From: Flavobacteriales bacterium | Lineage (GTDB): Bacteria; Bacteroidota; Bacteroidia; Flavobacteriales_F; PHOS-HE28 | Assembly: GCA_016788485.1 (NCBI GenBank) | Contig: JAEUSV010000048.1 | Span: forward strand, 13,956 to 77,955 | Reading direction: 5' to 3' | Length of the DNA stretch: 64,000 nucleotides | Shown here: positions 17,821-36,851 of the stretch, one piece after another | Numbering within the stretch: the stretch's first letter is position 1 | How the letters are laid out: every line of letters begins with the position of its first letter | Notes under the pieces: generated by a model | What the model was told of the DNA's origin: nothing | What the model saw: the letters and a program-made list of their open reading frames with translations, nothing else | Databases searched by the model: none | Made by a program: the position numbers and the translations under genes

Positions 17821-18327
17821 TTAGGGCGTGCTAACTTTGAATTTACTTCCGGATTTTTGCAACTTGTACGAAATTGGTGTGCATAAATCAGATATAATTA
17901 TTGTTTGGATACAACTGGCGTCCATTTTACATTGCAATACTGAGTGAGGTCTTGAGCTAAGGGATTTACCGTATACTGAATTTTCACTTGGGATACTCAA
18001 TGAAGCTTCGATGGGAATATCTCCTTGTAGCGTGGTATAAACTGATAGTGTGCCAATTTCTGTATGGTAGGAAACGATACTATCTTTTTGAAGCGTTAAC
18101 CAAGGACCAAAACGCTTACCGTTGAGAAGCACGCCTACCATGATCGGGCCCCGAATTGAATCTGTTGTGAAGACAACACAGGTACAATGTTCTTTAGTGT
18201 TATTTGACACGTAGAACCCTTCAGATGTGTATGAAACGGAATTCAACTGGCATGTATCAATCTGTGCCAATGAATTTCCTGCTTCACAGAATATGACTGT
18301 GTAAAGGATGAAACGGAGTAAGTTCAT
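17821..18327 (-). CDS. candidate immunity protein for the RHS toxin (Cys-rich, signal peptide, very low GC)
   Basis: 168-aa ORF 3 nt downstream of the RHS stop. N-terminal signal-like MNLLRFILYTVIFCEAGNSLAQ, with six further Cys in the mature part. GC is roughly 40% by eye against 65-70% in the bulk genome. Its position is typical of polymorphic-toxin immunity genes. Confidence 0.7.
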   Translation of the reverse strand: MNLLRFILYTVIFCEAGNSLAQIDTCQLNSVSYTSEGFYVSNNTKEHCTCVVFTTDSIRGPIMVGVLLNGKRFGPWLTLQKDSIVSYHTEIGTLSVYTTLQGDIPIEASLSIPSENSVYGKSLSSRPHSVLQCKMDASCIQTIIISDLCTPISYKLQKSGSKFKVSTP

Positions 18328-18330
18328 GTT

Positions 18331-21300
18331 TTACTTGCCTTTAGGTGTGACCTTTTCCGTGTCTAGCGTCCTTGGATTGCCCATATAAATGTTCAGCTTG
18401 AGTTCGCCAGGTATTTTCAACACTTCGTCATTTCGCGTGTCAGGTATGCGGGTGTTCCCCGCACCGTCAAAAGGCACCAATCGAAGGATATCACGCGTCA
18501 TGTTCTCAAGTTGAAATCTTATAACGCGCATATCCTCATCAGTCAATTGTCTGGCAATGCCTGCGTCGCCACCGCGAGCTATGAAAGGGTCTGAGTGGCC
18601 ATAAAAAGACCCTAGCAATCCTCGGGTTATTGCCGCATCCCCGTTACGATTATCTCTGTTTTTGTAATCTTTTGAGTAAAATAAATTGAATGATTTCGAC
18701 GTAATTCCTTCTTCATTGAAAAGTATCAACGAATTATTTCCACCACCTCCTTGGAAACTATCCCCGCCATTATACGAGTCGTCAGAGTCAGTGAGCACAG
18801 AGCCCTTGCCGCTGGCAATTTCATAGGGCAGCTCGAAGCCCGTCGTTGCCTGCGCATAACCCTCTTCTTCGGCGATGGGGGTATTATTATGGACCAACAT
18901 GAACGTGTATACTCGCTGAGAATTAACGGCTTCGAAGTATCCATTTGCGAGAGCGCGGACATTGGGGTCACTTATATCTTTGACCGCAGCAAGGAAATCG
19001 GCCTCACTGATGGGCGCGAATTGATGTGTTCCTGCCTGTTGCTGGAATAATGCTTTGAGCGCATCGTAACCAGTGAACACCGTCTGAACGTGCAGCTGCA
19101 GTCTGGCGAACGATTGCTGATTCCCCCCTTGAACGACTTGTCCATCAGGATCAACAAACTGTAGCGGACTGTTCTTCGCGAAGTGGTATGGCGAATAGTG
19201 TGGGAGCAAACGGGCCTTGGGGTCGATGCCTGACCACCTACCGATACGTACATCCAATAACCTTGATCCGAAGTCATAACTGGTTGCATTGGAGCCAAAT
19301 ATCTCGTCATCCTTCTCCTTGCCGTTGAACCCGAACCGATAATCCCCCCCACTGGCCGTGGTGGCGTTCGAGATCATCCCAAAGGGAAAATAGTCGGTCT
19401 GGTTGAGCACCTCGGCGCGGTAGGCGGTGGGCGGGGTGGGCAGAGCGGCGTTGTCGCAGAGCTTACGATCGGAGACAACCGCGCGCACGTTCCCCAGGTG
19501 ATCAGCAAGCTCGTATCGCTTCTGGTTGAGGCTGCGGGTGCTGGTGGCGGGCAAGAGCTCGTACACCAGGGGCTGCAGGCCAATGGCGGCCTCCCCGCGG
19601 GCATCGGGCTGGCTGAAGAAGTCCCACGCGAAGGTGGGCGCGGGGTCGTTGGGGTCTTTGATGAGGAAGGCCTCGCCCTGGTTGTAGGCCCAGGCGGGGG
19701 TGGCCACGAGCATGTCGCCGTGCTTGGTGCGGCGTATGTCGCCGCCCTCGCCGGTGATCACATCGGCGGTGTTGGTGGCCAGGTCCAGGCGTTTCACTTC
19801 GTGGGTGGCTGTTCCGAAGGTAAGGCCGGTGCGCACGAAATACAAGTACTGGGTGCCGGGGGCATAGTCCAGGTAGTGGATGGCGGCATCGACCTCGTCG
19901 TAGGCGCCCAGGTAGCTGGCCGCCAGGTGATCGGGGCTCAAGGCGTAGCGGTGCACCGTTACGGTGGGCGCCCACAGGGTGTTGAGCAACAGGGGCCCAT
20001 CGGCCGTTACAAAGGCAAGCTCGGCCCCATCGGGCCGCAGCTGCAGCAGGCCCTGCTGGGCCTGGTCGCTGCCGGTAAGGGGCGGTGCCAGCGGGGCGAG
20101 CAGGCCGCCGCCGTTCTGGGTCAGGGCCTCCAGGTCGAGGCCCATGAGGGTGTAGTCGGTGCCCTGGCGGCGCACGGCGTACAGCATGGTGCGGCCGTAG
20201 GCGGTGCGGTCGTCCACCACGGCCAGCGCCCGGTCGTCCACGCTGGCGGGGTCGTTGTCCAGCGGCACGTTCTTCAGCACCACGGCCCCCTGGGTAATGG
20301 CGGTGATCGAGAGGTCGATGAGGTGGATGTAGGGCCGCCCATCGGGCCCGATGGTGAAGAGGTAGTGCTTGTTGGGGCTGCCGGGCACCTGGCAGCTGTG
20401 CGTTACGGTGTTGGCCGCGGCCCGTATGCCCTGGCTGTTCCAGAGCACATCGCCGTTGCGGTCCAGCAGGTACAGGGTGTGCACGGTGCTGCCGTTCACC
20501 ACCTGGCTGGTGGCAATGGTGGCGAAGAGGCGGTTGCCCTGGCGGTCCTCGGCGCGGTGCACGTTGGTGCAGCCGGTGCCCACCACGGTGTGCTGGGCGG
20601 TCATGGCCGGTATGGCGGGCACGGTGGGGCTGGTCGCGTAGGTGCGGGTGTAGGTGTAGTTGCTGCTGGGGGTGAGGATCTCGCCGGCGCGCAACTTGGC
20701 CACACGGCTGGGCACATCGAGCCGTTCGAGCTCGGCCTTGGGGGTGAGCAGGGTGGGCAGCTCACGTTGCTGGGCCCCATCCCACACGCTGCGGCGCACC
20801 ACGGGGTTGTCGCGGTGGGTGCCCAGGCGGGCGCTGCCGTAGATCAGGTGCTCTTCCAGGCGGGTCTCGTCGAGCAGCTGGCCGGTGGTGTTGTCGAAGG
20901 TGCGGCGGTAGGTGGCCAGGGGGTTGCCCTGCGCATCGAGCACGTAGTAGGTGAATACGTCGCCGGGCACGGGGGCCTGCGTAATGCCGCTGCCCGGCGC
21001 GCTCACATCGGCCTTCATCACGCGGTGGCCGGCGGCATCGTACGCAAAGCGCAGGTGGCGCCCGCTGCTCAGGGCCACGGCGTGCACCTTGCCGTAGGGG
21101 GTCCAGCTGATGGTGTTGCCCTGGTTGTTCCAGGTCTCCTGCTCGAGCTGGCCGATGGCGTCGTAGGTGTAGGTGTGCGTTTCAGCGAGGTCGTCGCCTG
21201 CGCCATTGATGCTTTCGCTGATGCTGGTAAGGCGGTTGGGGCCGTTGGGGTCGCCGTAGGCGTAGGCGATGGCGTCCAGGGGGTTCCCGTTCAGGTCAAA

Positions 21301-24300
21301 ACGCTTCAACGCCGGTTGGCCGCCGGCCAGGTTGTCGTTCACGAAGTTGCCGTTGGCATCGTAGGCATAGCTGGTGGCGTGCTCCAGCCCGCCGTCGGTC
21401 CATTGGCCGCCCACCAGGTCGCGCTGGCGGTCGGCCTTCAGGCGGTTGAGCACATCGTAGCGGTAGCGCATCACACGCCGGTCCTCGGCGTTGAAGGGCG
21501 GTTGGGGCGGCTGGTTGGCCTCGGCGGTCTGCGCCTGCCAGCTCCACGCGCCGATGTTACCGTTGTAGAGGTCGTCGCGCACGCGGCCGTTGCCGCTGGT
21601 GTTGTGGAAGGGGCTGTTCAGGTCGTTGAAGTCGCCGTTGAAGTAGGAGAGCATCATGCCGAAGGCGTCGCGGCCGGTGGTGCTGTTGGTGCCTGCGAAG
21701 CTGTCGGCGCCGGGGTCGAGGTTGGTGAGCTCGGGCGCGTTGATGGCCTTGAGCCAGCCCTGGATGGTGTAGGTATGGTCGATGCCCTGCACCTTGTCCT
21801 CGCCGAGCAGGGTGCGGCGCAGCGGTCCGTGGGCGTAGTAGCTGTAGGTGGCGTCGCGGTCCCACAGCACGCCGTCGGTGCTGGTCTGCGCGGTAAGGAT
21901 GCGCCCGTCGGCATCGTAGGTGTAGCGCTGGAAGTATTGGTCGGTGAAGCCTTCGTTGTAGCGCAGCTGGCGCACGCGGCCGCTCACCAGGTCGTAGTCG
22001 TAGGCCACATGGGCGCGCCCCAGGCCGGGCAGCTGGTGCACGAGCCAGGCCACGTTGCCGTGCACATCGTAGCTGTAGGCGGTGAGCACCTGGTCGTGGG
22101 TGGTGAAGAGGTCGCCGTCCTCATCGCTCACCGTCCAGCTCACGCGGTTCACCAGGTTGCGCTGGGGTTGGCCGTTGGGGAAGGTGAGGCCGGCCAGCGG
22201 GGCGGTGTAGGTGGTGCGGGTAACGAACTTGCCTGCGGCGGGGAAGCTGTTGTCGTTGGCGAGGGCGGGGTCGGTGAGCACGGTGGCGGCGGCCAGGTTG
22301 CTCTCGCCCACCTCGATCACGCGGCCCAGCTCGTCATACCGGGTGTAGCTGTAGGTGGGGGTGGGGTAGGCGGCCTGCTTGGCGTTCTGGCTGAAGCGCA
22401 GGCGGCCCAGGCGGTCGTAGGCCATGGTGGTGGCGCCGCCATCGGGGGTGCGCTGCCACACCAACTGGCCCAGGCTGTTGTAGCGGTACTGGGTGCGTTC
22501 GTCGTAGGCCGGCACGTTGTTGGGCCAGTTGGCCTCGGGCACACCGGCATGGTCGAGCTGCTTGTCCTCGTCGTTGGGCGGCACGGTGCTCATGAGGTTG
22601 CCGGCGCGGTCGTAGTAGTACAGGGTGTAGTGGTGCTTGCCGCTGGCGAAGCTCACGTGCAGGTTGTCCTGGATGTTGGCGGGCACGGCGCACCGGCTCA
22701 TGTAGTCCTGCGCGAACTGGTCCACCAGCTGTTCCACCTGCATGGTGATGGCCGCGAGCAGCTCCTGGCGCAGGGCCTGGGCGTGGATGGCCTCGCAGGA
22801 GAGCGCGGTGCTGGGGTCGGGCGGGGTGGCGGGCGCGACCTCAGGCACCCAATGCAGGCACACCTCGGTGGGTATGCACAGGTTGTTCACCTGGAATTGC
22901 TGGGGATCCTGGTTGTTGCATGGCACGCCGTCCACCACGGGATGCGCGGCGCCGATCAGGCTTGCGGTGATCAAGGCTTCGGGAGGCCCGATGCTGGATA
23001 CCGGCGAGCCTTGTGCCTGCACGGTGTTGCAGGCGCTTACGCAGGTGTTCTGCAGGGCGAGCACGAGGCAGTCGATCGCGGCTTCGTCGTTGTCGTTCGC
23101 ACCGGCCGAACTTTCCGGCTGCAGGCCGTACTCGGCGATCACGGCCTGGCGGAAGGCGGCCTCCTGTTGCGTGCTGAAGCACGCCGTGGTGCATGCGGCC
23201 ACGATCTGGTCCGCCTGGTCCTGGATCTGGGTGGGTGTGAGCGGTGCTGCGTTCAGGTCGATCTCGGCCGCAAGGCAGCCCATGAGCAGGTCGTAGCCGG
23301 TGGTGAGCACGCCCGGGTTGGCGGGGTCCATGATGATCGGCTCGGCGAAGGCCACGCCAGGCGTGAGCGGCGTGCCGTTGAGGCTCGGTGGGTCGAGCAT
23401 CAGTGCACCCTGCGTTGAGGTGAACGGCTGCAAGCTGGCCAGGAACAGGTGGCAGTCGCTGCCGACCACGTCATCGCTCAGCCCTTGGTACGCGTTGGTG
23501 AGGTAGCCTTGGGTGCTGGAGAATTGGAGCGGGGTATGGGTGCTTCCGGCTGTACTGTAAAGCACGTCCGTTCTGCGGCCCGCGCAGTCGAGGAACAGGT
23601 CCACGAGGTATTGCTGCGGAAGCGGTGTCGCCGGGTTATAGCCGGGCAAGGTGGCGGCCCCGGGGACCGACCCGGGTGTAATGGGGTTGGGCGAGTTCTG
23701 TGCGGCCAGAAAGGCCGTGTACCCCTGCACCGCCCCGATCCAGCAGCCCCAGATCTTTTCGCAGTCGTACGGGGCGCCACCGGTGGCCGGTATGTTCAGC
23801 ATGTTGTACATCAGTTGCGAGAAGCTCGCGTACGTGTAGACCGCTGTGGGGTCGCCACTGATGGGGTAGCTGAAATGGTCGCTCCAGAACGTGGCGGGCA
23901 GGTTGTTGAGGTCGGTGGGCAGATCGGGGTCGATGGCCTCGTTGTACGCGCTGATGAAATAGCGGAGCAGGGTGTCGGCATCGATCACGCACGGGGGGCA
24001 TTCGAGCTTGGGCAGGTTGATCGACGCGCATTCCAGGGCGATCTGCACCTGGTCGTTGCCCAGGTCGGTCACCAGGTTGCTGGCGTAGAAGGCGTCGAGG
24101 TCCGCATTGTCCAGTGCCGTCAGCAACGGGGCCACGGTGGTCAACATGGCATCGGTGTACGCTTCGCGCAGGGTCTGCTGGTGGGCCTGCAGCGCGGGCC
24201 AGCCGGGGAAGGCGGGGTCATTATCGTCCAGCACGTTGTTCACGCGGATGCGGCGGCCCACCTTGTAGGAGCCGGCGTTCAGGGTAACGGTGTGGTTGAG

Positions 24301-26334
24301 GCTGGGCACGGTGCCGGCGGCGGCGGAGCAATCGAGGTTGGCCAGGGTGAGCGGTGTGGGCCAGGTCGCCACCGCCAACGTTTCGGGGATCAGGTTCTCG
24401 GCCGGGCAATCGGTGCGCACCAGGTAGTACTCGATGGTATAGTCGCAGGTGGCGCAGTAGTTCGGGCATGCTTCCACCTGGTCCGGCGTAAGCGTGTAGC
24501 TGAGGGTTACTGCGGTGTTGTTCCCGGGGATCAGCAGGTCGGCGCCCGCATCGAGCATGTAGTTGTCCACCACCACGCCGCCGTTCACGTCGAAGGCTTC
24601 CTCCTCGTTGGCGTACTGCTCGCTCTCCAGGCCCACGAGCCTGCGGGAATCGTCGTCCAAGGGCAGGTTGGGGGCGGTGGTGCGCACCAGGCAGGTGGCC
24701 AGCGTCTTGCCCTCCTTGTCCTGGTAGGTGATGGAGGTGACGCCGTTGGGGTCCACGGTCATCATCTTCATCACGCTCTGCGCCTGGTAGGCCTCCTTGC
24801 CGAAGATGCGCAGCAGCTCAGCGGGCGTTACGGCGCCATAGTAGGTGCGCGCGGTGCGGGGCGTGGCGTTGTTGGCGAAGGCGAAGACCTCGCCCGGCCC
24901 GCTCACCTGGCGCACACGCCCGGTGCCATCGGGCAGGTAGGTGGTGCGGCTGAAGGGGTAGCCTTCGGCACTGGGCACCTGCGGGTCGCCGCTGTTGGAG
25001 TAGTAGGTCGTGGGCCCTGCGTTGATGGGGGTGTTGCTCCCCAGGGTGCCTGCGGGCAGGTCGAAGTCCGCCGCGGTGTAATTGCCGACAGACCCTTGGA
25101 GCAGCTGGTTCTTATAGCCGAGGGAAGGCTGCTGCCCAAGGGGCGTGGGAAGGCTTTGCAGGGCGGGCCTGCCCTGCAGGTCCATCACCGTTTGGGTGGC
25201 CACCACCGTGTTGTTGGCGCTTTGCCGCACCTGCTCCTGCTGCACCTGCTGCAGGTCGGTGGCGTAGGTGATGCGTTCGCCGATGCGCACGCCCTGGATG
25301 CCGTCGGGGTCGGGCTCGGTGAACATCCTGCTGTACGCCCAGTTGCGGTCCTTGTCGAACTGCTCGTAGTAGAAAACGGCCAGGCCGTAGGCGTTGCTCT
25401 GCCAGAGCCCTGTGCCCAGGGCGCTGGTGCGCTGCACGTTCACCACGGCGTTCTGCTGGGCCGCGGCGGGGTTCCAGGGCCCGCGGTTGCGCGCATCGGC
25501 GCCCCCGCCCGGTACGAAGTTGCTGATGGCCCGCACCCGCCAGGCATAGAAGCCGGTGCCTTCGGCCAGCGTAAGCGTCAGGGCGTTCTGCGGCGTGCCC
25601 GTTTCCAGGGTCATGGCCTGCGACCAGTCGACCGTGGTCTCAATGTGCTGCTCGGTGGTGAGCGCGGCGGAGCGGTTGTACAGCCGCACCAGCTGCACCT
25701 CGTAGTTGGTATAGGGGGCCGGGCACGGGCATTGGTTGTTGGTGGACCATTGCAGGGTCACCTGGTTCGATTGGGCACCGGCATTGGTCACCCCGGCCGG
25801 CATCAGGGCGCAGTTGGTGTTCGCGATGGGCGCGAAGCTCACGCGCCGGTCCAGGGTGATGCGCGCGTTGACGAAGGGCAGGTGCGTGCTGGCCGCGGCA
25901 AAACCGGGGTTGGGGGTGTCCTCGCGCACCACGCGCAGCGTATGCGTCTGCTGGTAGAAGGGGGAGAGGTCGAGCTCGATCACCTGTTCGGGTCGGTCGA
26001 GCGCCAGGTTGAGCTCGAAGGGGCCTTGCTCGAACACGGTGGTGTTGTTCAGGGCCAGGCCGATCACCTTGAAGCGGAGCCGGGCCGCGGGGTCGGAGAG
26101 CCCCAGGTCGTGGTCCTCTCCGGTGCGGAAGGCCACGCGCAGGCTGAAGCGCTCCACGCGGTAGGTGTTGCCGCACGCCACCGGCGTGGTGGCCTGGCTG
26201 AACAACGTGGTCGCGGGTGCGCCCAGTTGCGTGGATCCCAGATCCACCACGGTCTGCTGGGCCTGCAGCATGGCTGGCAACAGGGCGGCGATCGCCAGTG
26301 CGACCGTGCACGAAAGAAGGGTGCGGAACACCAT
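18331..26334 (-). CDS. RHS/YD-repeat polymorphic toxin (TcC-like), 2667 aa, with variable C-terminal toxin domain
   Basis: Signal peptide MVFRTLLSCTVALAIAALLPAMLQAQ and a ~1200-aa N-terminal region. Many YD repeats (YYYDRAGNLMS, YRYNSLGQLVWQRTPDGG, YDRLGRLRF, YTRYDELGRVIEV, YSYDVHGNV, YTYDADGRIL, YAYDANGN). RHS-associated core ..YFPFGM..RLLDVRIGRWSGIDP..SPYHFAKNSPLQFVDPDGQ (Q codon at 19138-19140). A 268-aa unrelated tail follows (18334-19137). Confidence 0.95.
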   Translation of the reverse strand: MVFRTLLSCTVALAIAALLPAMLQAQQTVVDLGSTQLGAPATTLFSQATTPVACGNTYRVERFSLRVAFRTGEDHDLGLSDPAARLRFKVIGLALNNTTVFEQGPFELNLALDRPEQVIELDLSPFYQQTHTLRVVREDTPNPGFAAASTHLPFVNARITLDRRVSFAPIANTNCALMPAGVTNAGAQSNQVTLQWSTNNQCPCPAPYTNYEVQLVRLYNRSAALTTEQHIETTVDWSQAMTLETGTPQNALTLTLAEGTGFYAWRVRAISNFVPGGGADARNRGPWNPAAAQQNAVVNVQRTSALGTGLWQSNAYGLAVFYYEQFDKDRNWAYSRMFTEPDPDGIQGVRIGERITYATDLQQVQQEQVRQSANNTVVATQTVMDLQGRPALQSLPTPLGQQPSLGYKNQLLQGSVGNYTAADFDLPAGTLGSNTPINAGPTTYYSNSGDPQVPSAEGYPFSRTTYLPDGTGRVRQVSGPGEVFAFANNATPRTARTYYGAVTPAELLRIFGKEAYQAQSVMKMMTVDPNGVTSITYQDKEGKTLATCLVRTTAPNLPLDDDSRRLVGLESEQYANEEEAFDVNGGVVVDNYMLDAGADLLIPGNNTAVTLSYTLTPDQVEACPNYCATCDYTIEYYLVRTDCPAENLIPETLAVATWPTPLTLANLDCSAAAGTVPSLNHTVTLNAGSYKVGRRIRVNNVLDDNDPAFPGWPALQAHQQTLREAYTDAMLTTVAPLLTALDNADLDAFYASNLVTDLGNDQVQIALECASINLPKLECPPCVIDADTLLRYFISAYNEAIDPDLPTDLNNLPATFWSDHFSYPISGDPTAVYTYASFSQLMYNMLNIPATGGAPYDCEKIWGCWIGAVQGYTAFLAAQNSPNPITPGSVPGAATLPGYNPATPLPQQYLVDLFLDCAGRRTDVLYSTAGSTHTPLQFSSTQGYLTNAYQGLSDDVVGSDCHLFLASLQPFTSTQGALMLDPPSLNGTPLTPGVAFAEPIIMDPANPGVLTTGYDLLMGCLAAEIDLNAAPLTPTQIQDQADQIVAACTTACFSTQQEAAFRQAVIAEYGLQPESSAGANDNDEAAIDCLVLALQNTCVSACNTVQAQGSPVSSIGPPEALITASLIGAAHPVVDGVPCNNQDPQQFQVNNLCIPTEVCLHWVPEVAPATPPDPSTALSCEAIHAQALRQELLAAITMQVEQLVDQFAQDYMSRCAVPANIQDNLHVSFASGKHHYTLYYYDRAGNLMSTVPPNDEDKQLDHAGVPEANWPNNVPAYDERTQYRYNSLGQLVWQRTPDGGATTMAYDRLGRLRFSQNAKQAAYPTPTYSYTRYDELGRVIEVGESNLAAATVLTDPALANDNSFPAAGKFVTRTTYTAPLAGLTFPNGQPQRNLVNRVSWTVSDEDGDLFTTHDQVLTAYSYDVHGNVAWLVHQLPGLGRAHVAYDYDLVSGRVRQLRYNEGFTDQYFQRYTYDADGRILTAQTSTDGVLWDRDATYSYYAHGPLRRTLLGEDKVQGIDHTYTIQGWLKAINAPELTNLDPGADSFAGTNSTTGRDAFGMMLSYFNGDFNDLNSPFHNTSGNGRVRDDLYNGNIGAWSWQAQTAEANQPPQPPFNAEDRRVMRYRYDVLNRLKADRQRDLVGGQWTDGGLEHATSYAYDANGNFVNDNLAGGQPALKRFDLNGNPLDAIAYAYGDPNGPNRLTSISESINGAGDDLAETHTYTYDAIGQLEQETWNNQGNTISWTPYGKVHAVALSSGRHLRFAYDAAGHRVMKADVSAPGSGITQAPVPGDVFTYYVLDAQGNPLATYRRTFDNTTGQLLDETRLEEHLIYGSARLGTHRDNPVVRRSVWDGAQQRELPTLLTPKAELERLDVPSRVAKLRAGEILTPSSNYTYTRTYATSPTVPAIPAMTAQHTVVGTGCTNVHRAEDRQGNRLFATIATSQVVNGSTVHTLYLLDRNGDVLWNSQGIRAAANTVTHSCQVPGSPNKHYLFTIGPDGRPYIHLIDLSITAITQGAVVLKNVPLDNDPASVDDRALAVVDDRTAYGRTMLYAVRRQGTDYTLMGLDLEALTQNGGGLLAPLAPPLTGSDQAQQGLLQLRPDGAELAFVTADGPLLLNTLWAPTVTVHRYALSPDHLAASYLGAYDEVDAAIHYLDYAPGTQYLYFVRTGLTFGTATHEVKRLDLATNTADVITGEGGDIRRTKHGDMLVATPAWAYNQGEAFLIKDPNDPAPTFAWDFFSQPDARGEAAIGLQPLVYELLPATSTRSLNQKRYELADHLGNVRAVVSDRKLCDNAALPTPPTAYRAEVLNQTDYFPFGMISNATTASGGDYRFGFNGKEKDDEIFGSNATSYDFGSRLLDVRIGRWSGIDPKARLLPHYSPYHFAKNSPLQFVDPDGQVVQGGNQQSFARLQLHVQTVFTGYDALKALFQQQAGTHQFAPISEADFLAAVKDISDPNVRALANGYFEAVNSQRVYTFMLVHNNTPIAEEEGYAQATTGFELPYEIASGKGSVLTDSDDSYNGGDSFQGGGGNNSLILFNEEGITSKSFNLFYSKDYKNRDNRNGDAAITRGLLGSFYGHSDPFIARGGDAGIARQLTDEDMRVIRFQLENMTRDILRLVPFDGAGNTRIPDTRNDEVLKIPGELKLNIYMGNPRTLDTEKVTPKGK

Positions 26335-26345
26335 GGGTTGGTCGA

Positions 26346-30000: not shown

Positions 30001-33000
30001 CGTACTTCCGCTCCGGCACGGGCAACCGCAGGTAGCTGTGCGCGGGGATCACCGTAGTGCACGCAGCGGGAGTGCCCACTGTGTTCAGCAGGAAACCCAC
30101 GGCATCGGCGACCACGTCCTCCACATTGTTGCTACTGGTGCTGGGGTCGGTCACGCCGTGCTCCACCAGCTCAGTGCCGCCGAACTTGAACTGTTCGGCC
30201 AGGGGGGGCACGGGTGGCTGGCCACCGACCGCGCTGTACCACGAGGCCGATGGAAGCGAACGACCACGCTTCTGCGCCTTGAACAGGTCCTTGCACACAT
30301 CCTTCGGCAATCCGTGATCATCGCTGTTGAACCGGATCATGAGCAGGTAGTGCGAGGGGTCGTTCGGGTCCGCCACCACTTCCACGTGCTCCACTTTCGC
30401 ATACCCTTCGATGAACTCCATGTTGCGGCCGTGCAGCAGGGGGTCGGTCGCTGCGGCATCGTCGCGCAACACGTGCAGCATGCGGAAGAACATGCGCGCG
30501 TTGGTGCCGATGTAGGTGCTGGCGATGAGCTGGGCCATCCGCGCCAGCTTCGGGTCGGTCGCGCTGGTCGCGGTGATCCCGAGCGAGGCCGGGTCCATGA
30601 GCAGTTCATCGTATGGCTCCGCCGTCGATCCATTGTACCAGTCCTTCATCACCACCATGGCATGGGCGTGCTTGTCCTGCACGAAGGCATAGTCATCCGG
30701 TTCGTATTGCACGTGGATCTCGCCGCCCGAGGGGAGGATGATCCGTTTCAACTGCCACGCGGCCGGGTCGAACGCCGCGGCGTTCTGGTCCATCAGCGCC
30801 TGATCCACCCACGGCCGCATCTGGCGGGCACGGTCCACCGCATCCGGGCGGTAGTTGCCCCAGGGGTCGGGCATGTAGGCATTGCCATAGCCCGGGTTCT
30901 GGGTCGTGTTGGCGTAGAACGAGGGCAGGACCTGGTCGTAGGGCGCGGGATAGGTCGTGGGGTAGTTGTACACGAACTCGTAAGGGGCGATGCGCGCAGG
31001 CACCGTGCCGTTGTACTCGGTCCATACCCGTTTCAAGGTCAGCTTGCCCTGGCCGGCCTGGCTGTTGGGCGGCCCACCTCCGGGTCCGTTCCAGGCCGAA
31101 TAGTCGTAGTCGAAATGGACGGTCTTGATGGGCCTGGGGTTGGGATTGGGGACCGTGGTACCGGGAAGCGGTCCGAGCTCGGCGCGCGAGTAGAGCGTGA
31201 TCTTCTTCAGGTAGCGTTGCGTTCCACTGCCTGCCGGTCCGGTGAGCTGCTGTGGCGCGTTCGGCGCCGAGAGCGCATCCTTCCGTAGCTCTGCGGGGTT
31301 GGTCGGGTCGTTCAGCTCGAACACGGCCACATGGCTCTTGGTCTCGATGATGGTGAGGTAATAGAGCTCTTTCTCCCCCTCCGCGAACGAGATGCGGTCG
31401 TCGTGCACTTCGCTCAGCTGGCCAATGGCATAGTCGTACCCGCGGTAAGGCATGCGCCACTTATAGGAGTCGGCCTTTCGCCCGTAGCGAAAGGCCGTGT
31501 AGCCCCCCAGGTCGTCCAGTGTAGGCCCGTCCCCGCTCAGGTCCAGGTAGTCGGCATCCTGGATGGAGGTCAGGAGGTAGGTGGTCGCATAGTGGTCGTT
31601 CGCATCGCGCCCCGCTTTGAAGGCCCTCGTGGTTGCGTCCGGATCGCCATTGCACCCGGCCTTGGCCACATTCTCAATGACCGGTGTCACTCCCCCGTCG
31701 GTCTCAATGGAGAAGCTGTGCGCGTGTTCATTCATGGCATACACCGGCAGCCCATAGTTGTAGCGCTGCCCTTGGCCGTTGAGCACGGAGAGCTCACCGA
31801 CCAGGTCGTTCGAGTTGGGTGGGGTGGAAGGGGAGCTTAATGGTAGGGTGGTGTTTGGCAGTGCCGGTGATGAAAGGATGCTGTTATCGATCAACGCTCC
31901 AAGGTTCCCTTTCTCATAACTGCGGTAATGATGCCCCCCCGGTGTGGAAACGTTCATGTCGCCCACGGTGTTGAACCCGATGTGACTGGAGCGCCCGGGG
32001 CGTTCGCCGTTGTTGGCGTAGGCGCCTGCGAGGTAGGTGGAGTATGGTCCGGACAAGGCGCCGTCGGCGTGTTCCGGCCCATCATCGGTGGTGTACCGCA
32101 CCCAACCACCCGGGTCGTTGGCCATGCGGAAGAAGAAGGGCTCATCCTCGGGTTTTCCGATCACATTGGAGGTTGACCAGGTGTCAACGCTCATTTCCTG
32201 TTTGCCCAGTTGGAATTGTGCACCTGCACCGAGCCATGAACCTGCACCGACCTCGATCCCGGCCCTGTAGAGCGTTGTTGAACTGCTGGTATGCTGCGGA
32301 CCGAAAGGGATGACCCTTCGCTGGTATAGCCGCGCAGAACCACTGATCCCTTCGCCGCTGAAGGAGAATTGGTCGGGGTCGCTGATGGGCACGTTCAAGT
32401 ACTTGTCCCGCCGCTCGTAACTGGAAAGGTTCTCGCAGTGATAATCCTGTGCACCGGCGCACGTGGCCGTGGAGTACATGTATCCGGTATGGGGCAGGGT
32501 CTCTTCCGCCTGTGTCCTTTGGATACTGTACATGCCTTGTATCCCGGTCGTCAGTCCCACAGGCAGGGGTGCCGGCGTTGCCATTCCGGAAACGCTCACC
32601 GTCCAAGCCTGGCTTCCGTCCATCTTGGGTGCGGCGAGGCTGTAGCCGTTGGGGTTAAGTCCTTTGGACAGGTAGGAGTTCGCGATGGCGCCCGTGTTGA
32701 GCCGCATCTTCTTCAGCTCCAGACCTTTGATCTTCTTCCGATCCGTAGCATAGATCTCTCCTCGATTGAAGGTCTTATCCCGTCCTTTCTTTTTGATTTC
32801 CTTCATGTGTTTCTCCGCATCCGCTTTATTCTGCCTTGGTAGCATGGCGGGATTGACGTCCAACGAGAAGCTGCCGGAGCCATCGGACACTTGGTAGCCA
32901 ATGGATATCACCCCTTGGGCCAGGTGCATTCCTGCCCCGATCGTGCTTCCGAAACCGGTGTAGTTGTTGTACCGCGCGGTGCCGTGCGTGCTGAGCTGAA

Positions 33001-33469
33001 CGGGTTGGCTGAACGCTTCGGGTTCGATCTGTCCAGATAAGGAGACCGTGTGCTGGGGGATGGTCTGATTGTACAGCGTTACGTTGCTGTTCTTCCAATC
33101 ATCGGGCACGCCCCTGGTCTGGCGGCTGATGGAGCCGGGGTTCAGGGTCCACCCATAACCCACCCAGCTGGCCTCCTCTTCAGCGCTTGCACCAGCATGG
33201 TAGCTGAGGGAAAGCGCGTACCCGCCGCCATTGGGCCCGGGTATCTGCAGCACGGGCAGGTTGTAGGTGAAGTCGCCCGTGAACTCGTTCACCATGTTGG
33301 TGGTGACCACCGGCTCGAAGCTGGTGAACTCGGGCTGGGCAGGCCCGGAGGTGAGCGCATAGGCCGCCGTGGGGTACACCACATCAGCAAGCAGGCTCAG
33401 GAGCGTGAAGGATGCGACGATCCGAACGGTCCGGCCGTGCCGGTAAGGGCGATGGTTCCGCGTGCTCAT
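27068..33469 (-). CDS. giant secreted SpvB/TcB-like protein (2133 aa)
   Basis: Signal-like N-terminus (RIVASFTLLSLLADVVYPTAAYA). Residues ~45-125 ..FTSFEP..FTGDFTYNLPVLQIPGPNGGGYALSLSYHAGAS..WVGYGWTLNPGSISRQTRGVPDD fit the SpvB/TcaC N-terminal signature (P..PG..G..P.LSL.Y.S..G.GW.L....I.R.T..G.P). Near the C-terminus is a jelly-roll-like segment, then YD-like repeats (YVYDPATYRLLTSFDDQHFGLYYQYNDEGKLVRK). Confidence 0.8.
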   Translation of the reverse strand: MSTRNHRPYRHGRTVRIVASFTLLSLLADVVYPTAAYALTSGPAQPEFTSFEPVVTTNMVNEFTGDFTYNLPVLQIPGPNGGGYALSLSYHAGASAEEEASWVGYGWTLNPGSISRQTRGVPDDWKNSNVTLYNQTIPQHTVSLSGQIEPEAFSQPVQLSTHGTARYNNYTGFGSTIGAGMHLAQGVISIGYQVSDGSGSFSLDVNPAMLPRQNKADAEKHMKEIKKKGRDKTFNRGEIYATDRKKIKGLELKKMRLNTGAIANSYLSKGLNPNGYSLAAPKMDGSQAWTVSVSGMATPAPLPVGLTTGIQGMYSIQRTQAEETLPHTGYMYSTATCAGAQDYHCENLSSYERRDKYLNVPISDPDQFSFSGEGISGSARLYQRRVIPFGPQHTSSSTTLYRAGIEVGAGSWLGAGAQFQLGKQEMSVDTWSTSNVIGKPEDEPFFFRMANDPGGWVRYTTDDGPEHADGALSGPYSTYLAGAYANNGERPGRSSHIGFNTVGDMNVSTPGGHHYRSYEKGNLGALIDNSILSSPALPNTTLPLSSPSTPPNSNDLVGELSVLNGQGQRYNYGLPVYAMNEHAHSFSIETDGGVTPVIENVAKAGCNGDPDATTRAFKAGRDANDHYATTYLLTSIQDADYLDLSGDGPTLDDLGGYTAFRYGRKADSYKWRMPYRGYDYAIGQLSEVHDDRISFAEGEKELYYLTIIETKSHVAVFELNDPTNPAELRKDALSAPNAPQQLTGPAGSGTQRYLKKITLYSRAELGPLPGTTVPNPNPRPIKTVHFDYDYSAWNGPGGGPPNSQAGQGKLTLKRVWTEYNGTVPARIAPYEFVYNYPTTYPAPYDQVLPSFYANTTQNPGYGNAYMPDPWGNYRPDAVDRARQMRPWVDQALMDQNAAAFDPAAWQLKRIILPSGGEIHVQYEPDDYAFVQDKHAHAMVVMKDWYNGSTAEPYDELLMDPASLGITATSATDPKLARMAQLIASTYIGTNARMFFRMLHVLRDDAAATDPLLHGRNMEFIEGYAKVEHVEVVADPNDPSHYLLMIRFNSDDHGLPKDVCKDLFKAQKRGRSLPSASWYSAVGGQPPVPPLAEQFKFGGTELVEHGVTDPSTSSNNVEDVVADAVGFLLNTVGTPAACTTVIPAHSYLRLPVPERKYGGGLRVKRLLMVDPLGVAEGYPAVYGTEYRYETTAEDGTVISSGVATNEPASINCENPLVAPLERFQQSWASKVIAGRDREQSEGPIGMSIYPGPSVGYSKVIISNIGGSHLSGSCLPNGAGFVAKEFFTAREHPVEFDMTSIETDGPVYLPVITPWVTTIIDKRAVSQGFVLKFNNMHGQPKSETTYSGQPQALLTGGAGNAPFSARTEYEYYAAGDELPTLIDRFGNTAPRPLGQEMDITMEGRVARDEMENGGLEVDIGTGVPLPPSVSAALTVTYINTTIRSHATTKVINYPAVLKRTRTYVDGIHHMSEPVAFDPATGEPAVIRTHDGFLPDPANTSSLATATHGIYTKHTLPAHLVYPDLGQTAKGERKVVTPQSVLMTCTASSAGVAQVSLAAPPPPAGNGICDLLNALCQGDQLALTQGGQVRLYHLERSNPAGPTLHLLRSTGSTDLIAGTPITRLEVIRSGCSNQLAVPAAEYTTYDDGAMTMTADWSLRQQFVDNLNAVFAAQVLPDLIAGTPNNPYSVLVPSGLLFMGNGGSCNATPSVRFTIAANGNTLVPILSAQMTQPDGPSCDDPFVLSTSSATGSYGTFELDNATGVVNYRPGASPCHLIPVTCPRLCPATPDRTVTKVVSCNATVYSDLWTYDRGLYNVPNTLNAFETGMRGQWRPDSTYAFLSPTYNGGLNRNTGWYDMPFFDHDDPDNNAAQWVLTNHVVAYSPNGQPVEEENALHVRSCSKFGYHHQLPYLVAQNCASPLALFESFENDYTGTLEDKVQFSWNNAGQIDNVGHAGRKSFRLAVPQGFVYKSGTRALEAPLSAPRTMLVKAWFRCMDVTGPLDPVGPKAHLNSDPTGVPMQQVARVGEWVLCEAQLVLPSGSATYAIDLSCQRGSVSGSLHVDDVRIQPIDAQMTTYVYDPATYRLLTSFDDQHFGLYYQYNDEGKLVRKLVETERGLRTVQETQYNTPLEKNRIWP

Positions 33470-33472
33470 GGG

Positions 33473-34069
33473 TCAGGCGTTGGAAGGGGGCACGTTCAAC
33501 AGGGCCTTGCGCTCGAAACGGAAGTGCTGGATGCCCGTGCCGAGCACATGGTCCGTAAGGACCAGTTCGATCTCCGGTGAATCGTAGAAAGCGCGGTCGT
33601 CAGCATGTTCGGGTACGAAGACCAGAACGACGTTCCGGTCACGCGATAGACCGTAGGTGTTCTCCAGTGTGCTGAGCACGGGTGCGTATGAACGCGACCC
33701 GCAACGCAGTTCGATCATCTCCTCCCAGTTGAAGTTGAGGTCGAAGGCCTGCTGGAAAAGCTCCACGCGATCGGTGGCGCCGGCACGCATCACGTCGCCC
33801 TTGTAGCTCTCCATGTCCGGTGCGATGTTCACCACCACCGTCAGTTGCTTGCGCATGTCCTCGCCCTGCCCCAGGTGCATGCGTTGCGCCGCCAATGCCG
33901 GCGGCACCAGCCGCACGGTCGTGGTAATGCCGCTCACGGTCCTTTTGCGTAGCAGCCCATGCTCCGGATCGGCCGCGTAGGTGGCCAGCTCATCGGCGCT
34001 CAGGGGCGCATGCGCGCATCCACTGCCCAGCAGTAGGAGCGGTAGTAGGAGCAGATGCATGGGTCTCAT
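33473..34069 (-). CDS. lipoprotein of unknown function
   Basis: MRPMHLLLLPLLLLGSGC lipobox. 198 aa. Its start overlaps the stop of the Skp-like gene (34066-34069), and its stop is 3 nt from the start of the giant gene. Confidence 0.7.
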   Translation of the reverse strand: MRPMHLLLLPLLLLGSGCAHAPLSADELATYAADPEHGLLRKRTVSGITTTVRLVPPALAAQRMHLGQGEDMRKQLTVVVNIAPDMESYKGDVMRAGATDRVELFQQAFDLNFNWEEMIELRCGSRSYAPVLSTLENTYGLSRDRNVVLVFVPEHADDRAFYDSPEIELVLTDHVLGTGIQHFRFERKALLNVPPSNA

Positions 34070-34608
34070 GGGCGCAGACCTTGGTGGTGTTCGTTCAGGG
34101 CGGTGAGCAGTTCCTCGGTAATGTCCAAGGCACCCTCGCCGTAGAGCACATTGCCTTCGTCCGTGGTGCCAAGCACCATGTTGTAGCCGTGCTGAGCGGC
34201 ATAAGCGCCAACGAACGTGTTGATCTGCCCCAGCACGGCCTGCAGTTGTTCCCGTTCCTCGTCCTGTGCCTTGGCCTCCATGGCCTTCGCATAGCGTTGC
34301 AGCTCCTGCTGCTGCTTCATGGCCACCCGTTCCAGCTCTTCGTCGGCCCTGCCCTCATTCCGCAGCGCTGCCGCCTTCGCCATCGTGCGGCGCAGGTCGG
34401 CCGTGAGCGAATCCAGGTTGGAGCGCCAGCCTTGCTGTTCAGCCTGGAAGGCATCCACGGCCTCCTTCATGCCGAAGTAGCCGTAAACGAGCTCCTCCGA
34501 GCGCACGTAGGCGATCCGCGGCGTTCGCGACCAGGACCAGACGGACCAGGCCAAGTGCACGCCAAGGAGCACAGCGAGGAGGATGAGCAGGCGTTTCTGT
34601 ACGATCAT
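34066..34608 (-). CDS. OmpH/Skp-like periplasmic chaperone
   Basis: Start ATG at 34608 (MIVQKRLLILLAVLLGVHLAWS). ~180 aa with a long Q/E/K/A-rich coiled-coil middle (..AAALRNEGRADEELERVAMKQQQELQRYAKAMEAKAQDEEREQLQAVLGQI..) and a conserved end (..YNMVLGTTDEGNVLYGEGALDITEELL..). Confidence 0.7.
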   Translation of the reverse strand: MIVQKRLLILLAVLLGVHLAWSVWSWSRTPRIAYVRSEELVYGYFGMKEAVDAFQAEQQGWRSNLDSLTADLRRTMAKAAALRNEGRADEELERVAMKQQQELQRYAKAMEAKAQDEEREQLQAVLGQINTFVGAYAAQHGYNMVLGTTDEGNVLYGEGALDITEELLTALNEHHQGLRP

Positions 34609-34613
34609 GGTGA

Positions 34614-36851
34614 TCAGTTCTTTAGCATGAATTGGCCCTGATAGGGGGTGCCGTCGAGCTCGAGCTCGTAGACATAGACCCCATCGGGCACCATGGAACC
34701 GGAGTTCATGAACCTTCCGTTCCACCCCTGGGCCGGGTCGTTCGTCTGGTAGAGCAGCGCTCCTGAGCGGTCCTTGATCGTGAGCAGGAAGGCGTCCTCG
34801 GCCCGGTGCCCGCCGATGAGGAACAGGTCGTAGGCGCCGTCGCCGTTCGGTGTCATCAACAGCTGATCATCCAGGAGGAGGTGGAAGGGGGCCTCCTCGT
34901 TCGCCCAGCGCGATTCGGGCGCGTCGAGAAAGACCACTTCGTTGAGGTCATGGACCGCATAGAGCGCAGGGTCGAGGGTGTATCGCCCTTCGGAAGTGAC
35001 GATGGCGGGCTCCACGACCGTGCCGCTGTCCAGGCGGAAGGTGATGCTACCAGCACGCACATCCGCAGCAGCGGCCACCTCCAGCGTGTACAGCTCTTCC
35101 GAAGGCCCGGTGCCCAGGTCCACCTCGGAACGGGTGCCGCTCGTAAGGCCGCTGCTCTCGTTGGTGGGCTGCTGCATGGTCATGGCAATGCCGGGCACCA
35201 GCTGCTCGGTGTTCACGACCAGCGGAAGGGGCACGCTGGTGGCGAGGTCCTCGATCCGCACATGTTCGGACCAGGCCGTGACCATCAAGGCGAGCTTCAC
35301 TCCTTCGCTCTGCATCGGGATCGAGAACATGCGCTGGTCATCGATCTCGTAGTGAACGGCGCCCTCGTTGAAGCGGATCCCCACCAGGGAACCTGCCTTG
35401 AGCATGAACTCCTTCAACTCACCGGATGGCCCGATCGCCCGCGCGACGAGCTCGCCGTTGAGCGGATGCACCCACCATGCGAACTGCGTGCGCTGGTTCA
35501 CCAGGTCCTTGAAGCCCAGCAGGCATCCGTTCTTGTCCTCCCGGCCGATGACCGGCCGCCCCTTCATCCAATGCTTGTCCGGCTGCGCGGTGCAGTTCCT
35601 GCTGGTCGCGGCCACGGGTCGGCCACCACTGGGTGCGAAGGAGAGGTGGGTACCAAGGCCTTGCTGTTCCGTGCCAAGGCCCTTCGCCTCGTTCCACACA
35701 ATGAGCTGACCCAGATCGACCGCAAGGGTGTTCTGCGTGCCGTAATAGCTCGAATTGACCGTGACCTCGTATCGCCCCGGCTTCAGGCCATCCCTGTCCT
35801 TCGTCTCCGGGCCATCGCTCCACTGAAAGGCGTAGGTCCCGATATCCGGCTCGACCTGCAGTTCAACTCGTCCGCTCTTGGGCCATAATGGCTTCAATTG
35901 ACCGGCCTGGGCCTGGATGGTGAAGTCGGGAGGCAGGTCCGTCTTGAGGCCCTCGATGGTCCCATTGTTGTCGTAGATCGCCACGTCCGCGATCATGGCC
36001 TCAGGGAATGAGCTTGGTTTCGAATCCCTTTCGATGGTTCCGTTCCGGGTGAACAGTACCCGGCCTTCCTTGATCTCAATGGAGAACTTGGTGTCGGGAG
36101 CGAAAGGCACTTTCGGGCCGGTGAAGCTCCCGCCCTCCCAGGTGGAGGCCGAATCGCCGTCAAGGACCCACGCGAAGGCCATCTGCTGGTAGCTCGTGGC
36201 AGCGCCGATCGACTGGTCCCTGAAGCCCACGGCGAGCTTGCCTTGGGTATCGGGCGCCACGAAGACCAACCAACCATCCTGCTGGTCCAACAGGATGTTC
36301 TTCGTGGTGTAGCGCATGTTGGTCCACCCATTGCCAGCGGTCTTGGTGATGGCGCCTTCATCGGGCACTACACCTCCCTGTATGACGGCGGGAGCAAGGG
36401 GTTGCCCGATCTCCGCCACGGCGCTCGCCTGGTTCCCTGCGGCATCCACGGCGATGAGCTGGTACTTGCCGGGCGGAAGGCTGTCCAACCGGGGCTCATG
36501 GAGCTCGAGGAAGGAACTGTAGGTGATCGATCTCGGGTCCACCGCGGGCATGCCCAGCAACGAGAAACCCGTCGTGTCCAGCTCGGTCAATTGTGCGCCA
36601 TACGACGTGCTGTCTGGCAAGGAGTCGATGGCAAGGATCCGCACATCCCCTATGGCGCCGTCCACGTTGAGGTCGACGCTTCCGGGTGCTGTCAATGTCG
36701 CATCCTCCACGCTGAGGGTGATGACAAGGCTGTCCTGCGCGCTACCGCTCAAGGTCCAGAGCAGGAACATGATCAGGAGGGTCCGTAACGGTGCGCCGGT
36801 CTGCGAGGCGGGCCTCCGTTCCGGGGGGCGATCGAACATGGCTTGGTTCAT
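34614..36851 (-). CDS. large secreted protein with T9SS type B (gliding-motility-associated CHU_C-like) C-terminal sorting domain
   Basis: Signal peptide (..LRTLLIMFLLWTLSGSAQD). C-terminus ..LLMTPNGDGAYDLFLIGG..LLTIKDRSGALLYQTN..WNGRF..VPDGVYVYELELDG.. matches the type B CTD pattern (TPNGDG.ND...W.G....G..vp.G.Y.Y). Confidence 0.85.
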   Translation of the reverse strand: MNQAMFDRPPERRPASQTGAPLRTLLIMFLLWTLSGSAQDSLVITLSVEDATLTAPGSVDLNVDGAIGDVRILAIDSLPDSTSYGAQLTELDTTGFSLLGMPAVDPRSITYSSFLELHEPRLDSLPPGKYQLIAVDAAGNQASAVAEIGQPLAPAVIQGGVVPDEGAITKTAGNGWTNMRYTTKNILLDQQDGWLVFVAPDTQGKLAVGFRDQSIGAATSYQQMAFAWVLDGDSASTWEGGSFTGPKVPFAPDTKFSIEIKEGRVLFTRNGTIERDSKPSSFPEAMIADVAIYDNNGTIEGLKTDLPPDFTIQAQAGQLKPLWPKSGRVELQVEPDIGTYAFQWSDGPETKDRDGLKPGRYEVTVNSSYYGTQNTLAVDLGQLIVWNEAKGLGTEQQGLGTHLSFAPSGGRPVAATSRNCTAQPDKHWMKGRPVIGREDKNGCLLGFKDLVNQRTQFAWWVHPLNGELVARAIGPSGELKEFMLKAGSLVGIRFNEGAVHYEIDDQRMFSIPMQSEGVKLALMVTAWSEHVRIEDLATSVPLPLVVNTEQLVPGIAMTMQQPTNESSGLTSGTRSEVDLGTGPSEELYTLEVAAAADVRAGSITFRLDSGTVVEPAIVTSEGRYTLDPALYAVHDLNEVVFLDAPESRWANEEAPFHLLLDDQLLMTPNGDGAYDLFLIGGHRAEDAFLLTIKDRSGALLYQTNDPAQGWNGRFMNSGSMVPDGVYVYELELDGTPYQGQFMLKN

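Follow-up and report, generated by a model that had tools for sequence, protein, structure and literature searches.

A stretch of 64,000 nucleotides from a Flavobacteriales bacterium (contig JAEUSV010000048.1, positions 13,956 to 77,955 of the forward strand), called the window below, carries seven tightly packed genes on its minus strand, g1 to g7. Five of them, g2 to g6, form a cassette that recurs in the same order across the Bacteroidota and includes g6, which belongs to the class of RHS polymorphic toxins. We consider it probable, if only by a small measure, that the cassette is a Bacteroidota-wide, Sec-exported polymorphic RHS toxin system with a fixed set of helpers and with export in two steps, probably through a type II secretion system (T2SS). 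Genes for such a system lie in the same window and, in some other genomes, adjoin the cassette.

The conserved cassette and its RHS protein

The window has a G+C content of 63-70% and its source is a Bacteroidota genome. The genes under study are listed below with their positions in the window (aa, amino acids).

34614-36851, minus strand: g1, 745 aa, signal peptide and T9SS (type IX secretion system) type-B C-terminal sorting domain; accessory, adhesin-like
34066-34608, minus strand: g2, 180-aa OmpH/Skp-like periplasmic chaperone; core member
33473-34069, minus strand: g3, 198-aa lipoprotein of a family without known relatives; core member
27068-33469, minus strand: g4, 2133-aa secreted beta-rich protein; core member
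26346-27071, minus strand: g5, 241-aa protein that has a signal peptide and conserved Cys residues; core member
18331-26334, minus strand: g6 as a whole, putative RHS toxin of 2667 aa; core member
19138-26334, minus strand: conserved part of g6, residues 1-2399, from the signal peptide to the Rhs core (DPDGQ)
18331-19137, minus strand: putative C-terminal polymorphic toxin domain of g6, residues 2400-2667
17821-18327, minus strand: g7, 168-aa Cys-rich signal-peptide protein; candidate periplasmic immunity protein

Adjacent genes overlap by 4 nt (g2/g3 and g4/g5) or are separated by gaps of 5 nt (g1/g2), 3 nt (g3/g4 and g6/g7) and 11 nt (g5/g6). An earlier interpretation made from the letters alone (the sequence-only reading) had described the same seven minus-strand open reading frames (ORFs) between 17821 and 36851, and its coordinates and junctions (-4 to +11 nt) were reproduced here. 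It had also regarded them as one unit of about 19 kb. The tight packing is indeed not a matter of chance, but the unit that is conserved consists of five genes only: g2 (OmpH-like), g3, g4, g5 and g6 (DUF6443-RHS), in this order.

ORFs were called in 86 related loci, of which 82 are distinct, and searched with iterated hidden Markov models (HMMs). The order g2-g3-g4-g5-g6 recurred nearly wherever the contig reached, with g2 found in 60 loci, g3 and g5 in 66 each and the N-terminal region of g6 in 67. Among species-representative genomes 435 g4 loci were found, in at least five orders. The carriers belong to the Flavobacteriales, Chitinophagales, Cytophagales, Sphingobacteriales and Saprospiraceae, together with metagenome-assembled genomes (MAGs) of Bacteroidales and a single MAG of Chlorobiota; the closest relative of g4 (60% identity) comes from a Flavobacteriales MAG. 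A clustered protein collection contained at least 795 homologues of g4, all named hypothetical and about 2050-2400 aa long. Searches with the N-terminal 400 aa of g4 gave 5859 clusters (at 50% identity) with E<=1e-3, and at least 2651 such clusters matched the N-domain with E<=1e-30; among the matches listed (the best 150), all were g4-like. In other words, an operon-like unit around a Sec-exported RHS toxin with helpers of its own, as the sequence-only reading had proposed, is conserved in gene order across several orders of Bacteroidota, but neither g1 nor g7 is part of its core.

Some genomes contain two or three copies of the cassette, as in one MAG (nzgw115; L036, L071 and L083) and in Dawidia cretensis (L030 and L048), and some of these multi-copy cassettes have no recognisable g2, g3 or g5 beside g4-g6. 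Extra ORFs with RHS repeats were seen 3' of the main RHS gene in L049, L057, L071 and L084; by analogy with other Rhs loci they may be orphan toxin modules.

g6 begins with a signal peptide, followed by a DUF6443-like region, a Cys-rich region, an RHS/YD shell into which some 500 aa are inserted, and the Rhs core, so that 1150 residues of its own precede the RHS shell. The RHS_repeat model scored 34.2 bits (cut-off 22) and the Rhs core model TIGR03696 37.6 bits (cut-off 32.5) at residues 2315-2399 (19138-19392), which end in DPDGQ; TIGR03696 and TIGR01643 were the only matches in an NCBIfam scan of the protein. DUF6443 (PF20041) reached 15.2 bits in the window copy versus a cut-off of 27.8 (E 0.026, residues 363-495, 24850-25248), and it was matched in 22 of 27 members of the g6 family with a best E of 3e-9. 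Relatives of g6 also contain PKD, PA14 or L-type lectin domains. With such an N-terminal region ahead of its shell, g6 has the look of a whole RHS protein and not of one half of a toxin. Assignment of g6 to the TANFOR class of toxins was rejected because the NCBIfam scan gave no such match, on the assumption that the TANFOR model was present in that release.

The end of g6 is variable. Homology to the closest relative extends as far as residue 2398, where the Rhs core ends, and homology to other loci breaks off by about residue 2290; neither the C-terminal 268 aa of g6 nor g7 has a homologue in any of the 86 loci. Among 5.8 billion proteins the tip had a single homologue, likewise located on an RHS protein; residues 2400-2667 gave no Pfam match, so no activity can be assigned. 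The G+C content is 48.1% in the tip and 39.6% in g7, as opposed to 66.6% in the rest of g6. g7 starts 3 nt after g6 and is as variable and low in G+C as the toxin tip, and elsewhere its position is taken by unrelated small ORFs with lipoprotein, transmembrane or cytosolic N-termini. Because the tip and g7 are both strain-specific and low in G+C, they look like a swapped toxin/immunity pair. The combination of a DPDGQ-containing Rhs core, a hypervariable tip of low G+C content and a variable small gene next to it is the standard signature of polymorphic toxins and their immunity genes.

A type II secretion cluster linked to the cassette

The sequence-only reading had stated that the window contains no TcA, VgrG, Hcp, PAAR or TpsB-like partner for the RHS protein. 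This was borne out, as none of these families had a match in about 40 scanned ORFs of the window; nor did PAAR, VgrG/Hcp or EagR give a Pfam or NCBIfam match in g6 or any other of these ORFs. TcA, type VI secretion system (T6SS) and two-partner secretion (TPS) genes were absent from the window and from about 170 related loci, and TcA-type, T6SS and TpsB/CdiB/TPS families were not among the recurrent flanking families of the 82 loci. Partners of the T6SS, TPS or TcA kind were therefore rejected. In Microscilla marina (L089, 2502-5435) a gene for a 977-aa protein with a weak eCIS_core match lies about 4.5 kb 5' of the cassette, in this genome only.

What did not hold was the conclusion that the window offers no partner at all. 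At 76-9227 it contains, as judged from matches and motifs, a complete T2SS/type IV filament cluster of the Bacteroidota type:

76-567, plus strand: minor prepilin, motif PAFTLLE, read from the translation
545-1684, plus strand: GspF/PilC platform protein (T2SSF 162.2 bits)
1689-2204, minus strand: PilP/GspC-like protein (motif reading and position only)
2201-3121, minus strand: lipoprotein of the T2SS cluster (sequence reading)
3654-4847, minus strand: PilM/N-like protein (sequence reading)
4851-6740, minus strand: secretin (Secretin 129.9 bits)
6745-8151, minus strand: GspE ATPase (T2SSE 408.6 bits)
8147-8695, minus strand: prepilin-peptidase-like polytopic membrane protein (GxGD motif and position only, from which the A24 type is inferred)
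8811-9227, minus strand: prepilin of the T2SS cluster, motif PAFTLTE (N_methyl 21.8 bits, cut-off 21.2)
41307-41702, minus strand: MORN_2-repeat protein (MORN_2 39.8 bits), on the opposite side of the cassette from the T2SS genes

The genes at 1689-9227 are transcribed in the order prepilin, peptidase-like protein, GspE, secretin, PilM/N-like protein, lipoprotein, PilP/GspC-like protein.

In some other genomes the two clusters are found next to each other. When the ORFs flanking the cassette in the 82 distinct loci were clustered, no family occurred in more than six loci, and examples of the top families (more than three loci) turned out to be mostly T2SSF, T2SSE, secretin, PilN-like and prepilin proteins, plus MORN_2. 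Parts of a T2SS lay no more than 10 kb from the cassette in 12 of the 82 genome loci, which represent at least four orders, and in addition in Halocola ammonii; T2SS genes also adjoin the cassette in L090, and T2SSF does so in L009, L019, L038, L044, L058 and L073. The T2SS genes of D. cretensis and Ohtaekwangia koreensis run into g2, with only 10-12 nt between the PilP-like gene and g2.

The association was also apparent from the opposite starting point. In a reciprocal sample of 80 metagenome loci seeded on GspF, 40 of which are at least 12 kb long, g2, g3 or g4 was nearby in 14 (in 12 of the 40 longer loci). Four of these loci (L122, L133, L145 and L151) contain a single co-directional block from GspF to g4, in the order GspF, pilin, peptidase, GspE, secretin, PilMN-like protein, lipoprotein, PilP-like protein, g2, g3, g4. 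The MORN_2 gene regularly belongs to the Bacteroidota T2SS cluster, and in most GspF-seeded loci its place is between the PilP-like gene and the pilin genes. We estimate the probability that a single-copy cluster of about 12 kb falls within such flanks by chance at well under 1% for genomes of 4-6 Mb. The linkage of cassette and T2SS holds in both directions, often with the cassette continuing the T2SS operon in the same direction.

In the window itself the two clusters are not contiguous. Directly 3' of g7, at 15278-16870 (minus strand), lies a gene for a 530-aa signal-peptide protein with DUF5122 beta-propeller repeats that has no counterpart in the other loci. It is followed at 12968-14980 (minus strand) by a gene for a 670-aa protein with only a weak match to HATPase_c (GHKL) and no homologue near the cassette elsewhere, which looks like an unrelated insertion and is possibly related to defence. 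The third gene (9765-12941, minus strand) encodes a 1058-aa protein in which DUF7948 is combined with a PKD-like domain and a T9SS tail of type A (Por_Secre_tail 23.7 bits, below the cut-off of 27). The 10-12 kb bin of the window shows a dip in G+C content to 54%.

Helper genes, the giant protein g4 and the surroundings

Inspection of the N-termini by eye agreed with the sequence-only reading that all seven proteins start with a Sec-type signal peptide or a lipobox. For g3 and g5 this is supported across 30 homologues each: the Cys of the g3 lipobox (LLGSGC) is kept in at least 90% of them, and all g5 homologues have a hydrophobic N-terminus. The family assignments made earlier could be upheld for g1 (CHU_C/TIGR04131), g2 (OmpH) and g6 (RHS_repeat/TIGR03696) but not for g4, where SpvB stayed below the cut-off.

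g2 matched OmpH (PF03938) with 81.6 bits (cut-off 32.4) over profile positions 1-141, the full length, after an N-terminal signal or anchor. It is not an Skp equivalog, since NF008047 scored 41.9 bits versus a cut-off of 237. In most of the 60 loci with a g2 homologue it immediately precedes g3; in a few it is displaced. g3, g5 and g7 belong to no known family according to Pfam and NCBIfam profile searches; g3 and g5 had no match among PDB sequences either, and structural or sequence relatives of the two were not found. g5 was found in its 66 loci only after HMM iteration, its identity to the window copy being 11-26% except in the closest relative (47%).

In g1 the CHU_C (42.8 bits, cut-off 27) and TIGR04131 (41.7 bits, cut-off 35) matches cover residues 665-745 (approximately 34617-34859). 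A g1-like CHU_C gene was present 5' of g2 in only about 20-25 of the 86 loci, about a quarter, and g1 is therefore accessory and not a core gene. The gene directly after it is the OmpH-like g2. No SprF match occurred in the general scans of the window ORFs, which did not include a search aimed at PorP/SprF. Two adjacent genes for T9SS type-B cargo, one with PKD and CHU_C domains and one with SprB repeat, PKD and CHU_C domains, are located at 45455-49970 (plus strand); type-B cargo is thus abundant in this genome even apart from the cassette.

The first 1690 residues or so of g4 make up its conserved core, and near the N-terminus the family has a conserved junction between P-T-x-A-x-A and LTSGP. 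Behind the core come a site with insertions that differ between lineages (about 28250-28372) and the C-terminal domain (window residues 1740-2130); the latter resembles a jelly roll only by motif reading of the family consensus. In Cytophagales (L022, L026, L080, L039, L028-L030, L038 and L054) two ORFs take the place of g4, with the break near window residue 1690; the second of them consists of a variable module of 470-2650 aa and then the conserved C-terminal domain. PA14, GLEYA and CBM_4_9 insertions were found in relatives of g4 and a DUF7948 match inside the second ORF of Dawidia (L030). As lectin-type modules occur in relatives of both g4 and g6, the two have the appearance of extracellular proteins that bind a target. 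The variable module of the split g4 resembles the ectodomain of g1 in Fulvivirga, where, as in Ohtaekwangia, the split C-terminal part of g4 contains fused g1-like modules. This resemblance is only suggestive, as the g1 HMM may have drifted to generic Ig-like repeats.

Divergently from g1, a gene for an HTH_3 (Xre-type) protein is located at 36939-37412 (plus strand; HTH_3 30.6 bits). It has been kept at this position in the closest relatives only (L002/L007, L017 and L075) and is possibly a local regulator. A promoter and terminator scan of the locus performed no better than on shuffled sequence, with a sigma-70 consensus that does not fit Bacteroidota. Further away, at 53696-59097 (minus strand), lies a cytochrome c maturation cluster (CcmB, CcmC-like, CcmE, CcmF), in which the OmpA-domain match of one ORF may be an artefact of calling ORFs from stop to stop in DNA of high G+C content.

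Proposed export of the toxin and comparison with known systems

Because the producer is a diderm bacterium, export requires an outer-membrane step. We propose that the products of g2 to g6 would cross the inner membrane by Sec, and that the Skp-like g2 would then hold the giant beta-rich proteins g4 and g6 in an export-competent state in the periplasm. A secretin-based T2SS/type IV filament machine would carry both across the outer membrane, to the cell surface or into the medium. Outside the cell g4, with its SpvB-N-like head and variable lectin module, would act as binding or docking partner of the RHS capsule of g6, and this capsule would free the C-terminal toxin into the target cell. With its signal peptide, g7 would shield the periplasm of the producer, and g1, where present, would be an accessory T9SS-anchored adhesin. 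A bolder version, which we put forward tentatively and think rather doubtful, takes the Bacteroidota T2SS as the dedicated launcher of a two-protein RHS weapon. In it the secretin would receive g4 and g6 from the Skp-like holdase; g4, at the surface or at the tip of a (pseudo)pilus, would be the target-binding and translocation partner, and g6 would deliver the toxin on contact.

Several points weigh against export by the T2SS. In about two thirds or more of the cassette loci no T2SS gene lies within 10 kb, as in those of Sanyastnella, Sporocytophaga, Microscilla and Chitinophaga, and in the window the three unrelated genes mentioned above (9765-16924) separate g7 from the T2SS genes. With about 230 and 290 kDa, respectively, g4 and g6 are far larger than known T2SS substrates, and a folded RHS capsule may not fit the secretin channel. 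We infer the export of g4 and g6 by the T2SS from gene neighbourhood, which is no proof, and the docking role of g4 is likewise our inference.

The sequence-only reading had suggested instead that g4 and g6 represent the two halves, B and C, of a Tc-like cocoon, which would be assisted in the periplasm by a chaperone and lipoproteins of its own and which the T9SS type-B cargo may display or release. The N-terminus of g4 indeed carries a motif (FTGDFTYNLPV..PG..GG.Y..SLSYHSG...WVGYGWTL...I.R..RG.P) that recalls SpvB/TcB and DUF6531. The SpvB match of the window copy (residues 63-123, 33101-33283) scored 15.6 bits versus a cut-off of 22, and in the g4 family SpvB (PF03534) scored 15.6-17.2 bits over only positions 3-60 of the 287 in the profile. 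Such matches below threshold were recurrent, with SpvB in 9 of 20 relatives and DUF6531 in 13 of 20. In hhalign the N-domain aligned with a five-sequence SpvB/TcB alignment at E 0.0073 over 50 columns, the motif only, and not significantly (E 0.5) with a single SpvB sequence. Two AlphaFold2 models were made, which cover the N-terminal 1200 aa or so of g4 alone, without partner proteins. The first (residues 35-1140, 20 sequences) had a pLDDT of 48.7 and no Foldseek match below E 0.04. The second (residues 35-1234, 40 diverse sequences; pLDDT 72.9, pTM 0.73) consisted mostly of long antiparallel hairpins and a helical Lys-rich linker. The SpvB N-domain was the top match of both, and for the second model this was 6p0x from Salmonella (probability 0.96, E 7.5e-3). 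The TM score was only 0.30, and no Tc, teneurin or Rhs cocoon and no propeller-containing Tc structure was among the confident matches. A distant SpvB-N-like domain at the N-terminus of g4 is thus probable, as sequence and models both suggest, and this much of the relationship is plausible, but the matches do not amount to membership in the family. TcdB_toxin_midN/midC, FG-GAP/VCBS and RHS_repeat gave no match (E<=0.1) in g4 or in 20 + 22 homologue halves. A profile of 33 members of the g4 family retrieved no Tc, Rhs or teneurin protein at E<=1 from all PDB chains, and the profiles of g3, g5 and the N-terminal region of g6 found nothing useful there either. YD-like hairpins do end g4 (about 50 residues, 27134-27289), but when g4 was aligned with the RHS region of g6 only residues 2061-2112 were similar (49 columns, E 0.11), with no similarity across the shell. 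With SpvB below threshold and neither a propeller nor an RHS/YD shell in the searches, g4 was rejected as a member of the TcB family.

The shell, core and variable tip of g6 are arranged as in TcC, which would suit a cocoon, as would the fusion of g1-like modules to the C-terminal domain of g4 in some Cytophagales; yet g6, with its long N-terminal region and DUF6443-like domain, appears complete in itself. The T9SS cargo gene is missing from about three quarters of the loci, and neither g4 nor g6 has a T9SS C-terminal domain, for which reasons display by T9SS cargo is weakened and T9SS was rejected as a general route. All in all a Tc-like cocoon seems to us quite improbable. An explanation that deserves somewhat more credit, unlikely as we think it, is that the toxin cassette is real and its T2SS neighbourhood incidental, being due to an island, an insertion hot-spot or shared regulation. 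Under this explanation the proteins would leave in some other way, for instance in outer-membrane vesicles, by surface exposure with the help of lipoproteins or by Tc-like lysis. It would account for the many loci without a nearby T2SS gene, for the varying relative position and orientation of the two clusters and for the size of g4 and g6, which argues against passage through a secretin. There is also a precedent in the large Tc toxins of Yersinia entomophaga, described as being freed by lysis that depends on a type X secretion system (PMC10847048). Against it, the linkage was found from both starting points, in several orders and in differing arrangements, which points to functional coupling rather than to a single inherited island. 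The co-directional blocks, the gaps of 10-12 nt and the absence of any other recurrent gene family from the flanks argue in the same direction, and the Sec signals on all products argue against cytoplasmic lysis. It might finally be thought that the proteins form a teneurin-like surface complex for adhesion or cell-cell recognition instead of a weapon, the tip and g7 serving kin recognition or being non-toxic. The lectin, PA14, PKD and CBM modules in relatives of g4 and g6 and the adhesin-like g1 would agree with this, as would the reduced adhesion to cellulose reported for T2SS mutants of Cytophaga hutchinsonii (PMC5553014). The DPDGQ core, the hypervariable low-G+C tip and the variable adjacent gene are nevertheless the signature of a toxin and its immunity protein, and adhesion and toxin delivery can coexist; we regard a purely adhesive role as very improbable.

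As a Sec-exported RHS toxin system the cassette shares features with several known systems. Like the Rhs/YD polymorphic toxins, among them WapA and T6SS Rhs effectors such as RhsA and Tse5, g6 has RHS repeats, a core ending in DPxG, a hypervariable toxin and a small gene next to it, and like WapA of Bacillus subtilis it starts with a Sec signal instead of PAAR/VgrG. It differs from them in its 1150-aa N-terminal region with a DUF6443-like domain and in its four conserved partner genes, and from T6SS Rhs effectors in that no PAAR, VgrG or Hcp was found in the scanned ORFs of the window. With TcB-TcC toxins and SpvB it has in common a pair of neighbouring giant genes, of which the latter ends with an RHS core and toxin, as well as the SpvB/TcB-like N-terminal motif and fold of g4. 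Here, however, g4 has no detected TcB propeller or RHS repeats, g6 is a complete RHS protein and no TcA occurs in the window or the recurrent flanks. Tc components are not known to have Sec signals, unlike the proteins of the cassette. The Kil apparatus of Myxococcus xanthus, a Tad-like machine of the type IV filament family, takes part in contact-dependent killing of prey. Its likeness to the present system is conceptual only, as it represents a different branch (Tad) and is not known to have an RHS toxin.

Putative T2SSs of Bacteroidetes have been described in C. hutchinsonii (CHU_3191-3202) and as Fjoh_0611-0622; their substrates are not established, and the system of C. hutchinsonii is tied to cellulose use and adhesion (PMC5553014). 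The components of this system and the way they are arranged locally (pseudopilin, A24-like peptidase, GspE, secretin, PilM/N/P-like proteins, GspF) agree with those at 76-9227 of the window. The sections consulted of that account mention no RHS, OmpH or giant-protein cassette (PMC5553014), whereas here the cassette often extends the operon. Among published ideas the one that comes closest concerns the TANFOR polymorphic toxins of Bacteroidetes, a class for which secretion by the T9SS has been proposed (Jana, Salomon and Bosis 2020, PMC7073777). These, too, are large proteins of Bacteroidetes with Sec signals whose route across the outer membrane was inferred from neighbouring genes (PMC7073777), but g6 is RHS-based and its recurrent neighbours are the T2SS and a four-gene helper set, not T9SS cargo in general.

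The sequence-only reading had called the route unreported, and full-text literature searches revealed no description of the cassette. As far as found, the five-gene module, the g3, g4 and g5 families and the association of the Bacteroidota T2SS with an RHS toxin are new, while g1 and g2 are typical representatives of the families to which they belong and the T2SS of the window is of the known Bacteroidetes type.

From diderm cells RHS toxins are known to be released on the spike of the T6SS or in the form of Tc complexes. The cassette brings together two problems, namely how the Sec-signal RHS proteins of Bacteroidota leave the cell and what the Bacteroidota T2SS secretes, and it provides a phylum-wide fixed helper set for an RHS toxin together with a concrete candidate exporter. 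It also draws attention to g3, g5 and g4, large families without a name, Pfam model or structure. The idea is directly testable in cultured carriers both with and without an adjoining T2SS. The T2SS cluster adjoins the cassette in O. koreensis DSM 25262, D. cretensis PWU5 and H. ammonii, and GspF does so in Hymenobacter lucidus; Sporocytophaga myxococcoides, M. marina and Sanyastnella coralliicola have no T2SS gene within 10 kb of it. If the T2SS should prove to be a launcher of g4 and g6, this would be a new contact-dependent route of RHS toxin delivery and would define the first substrate class of the Bacteroidota T2SS.

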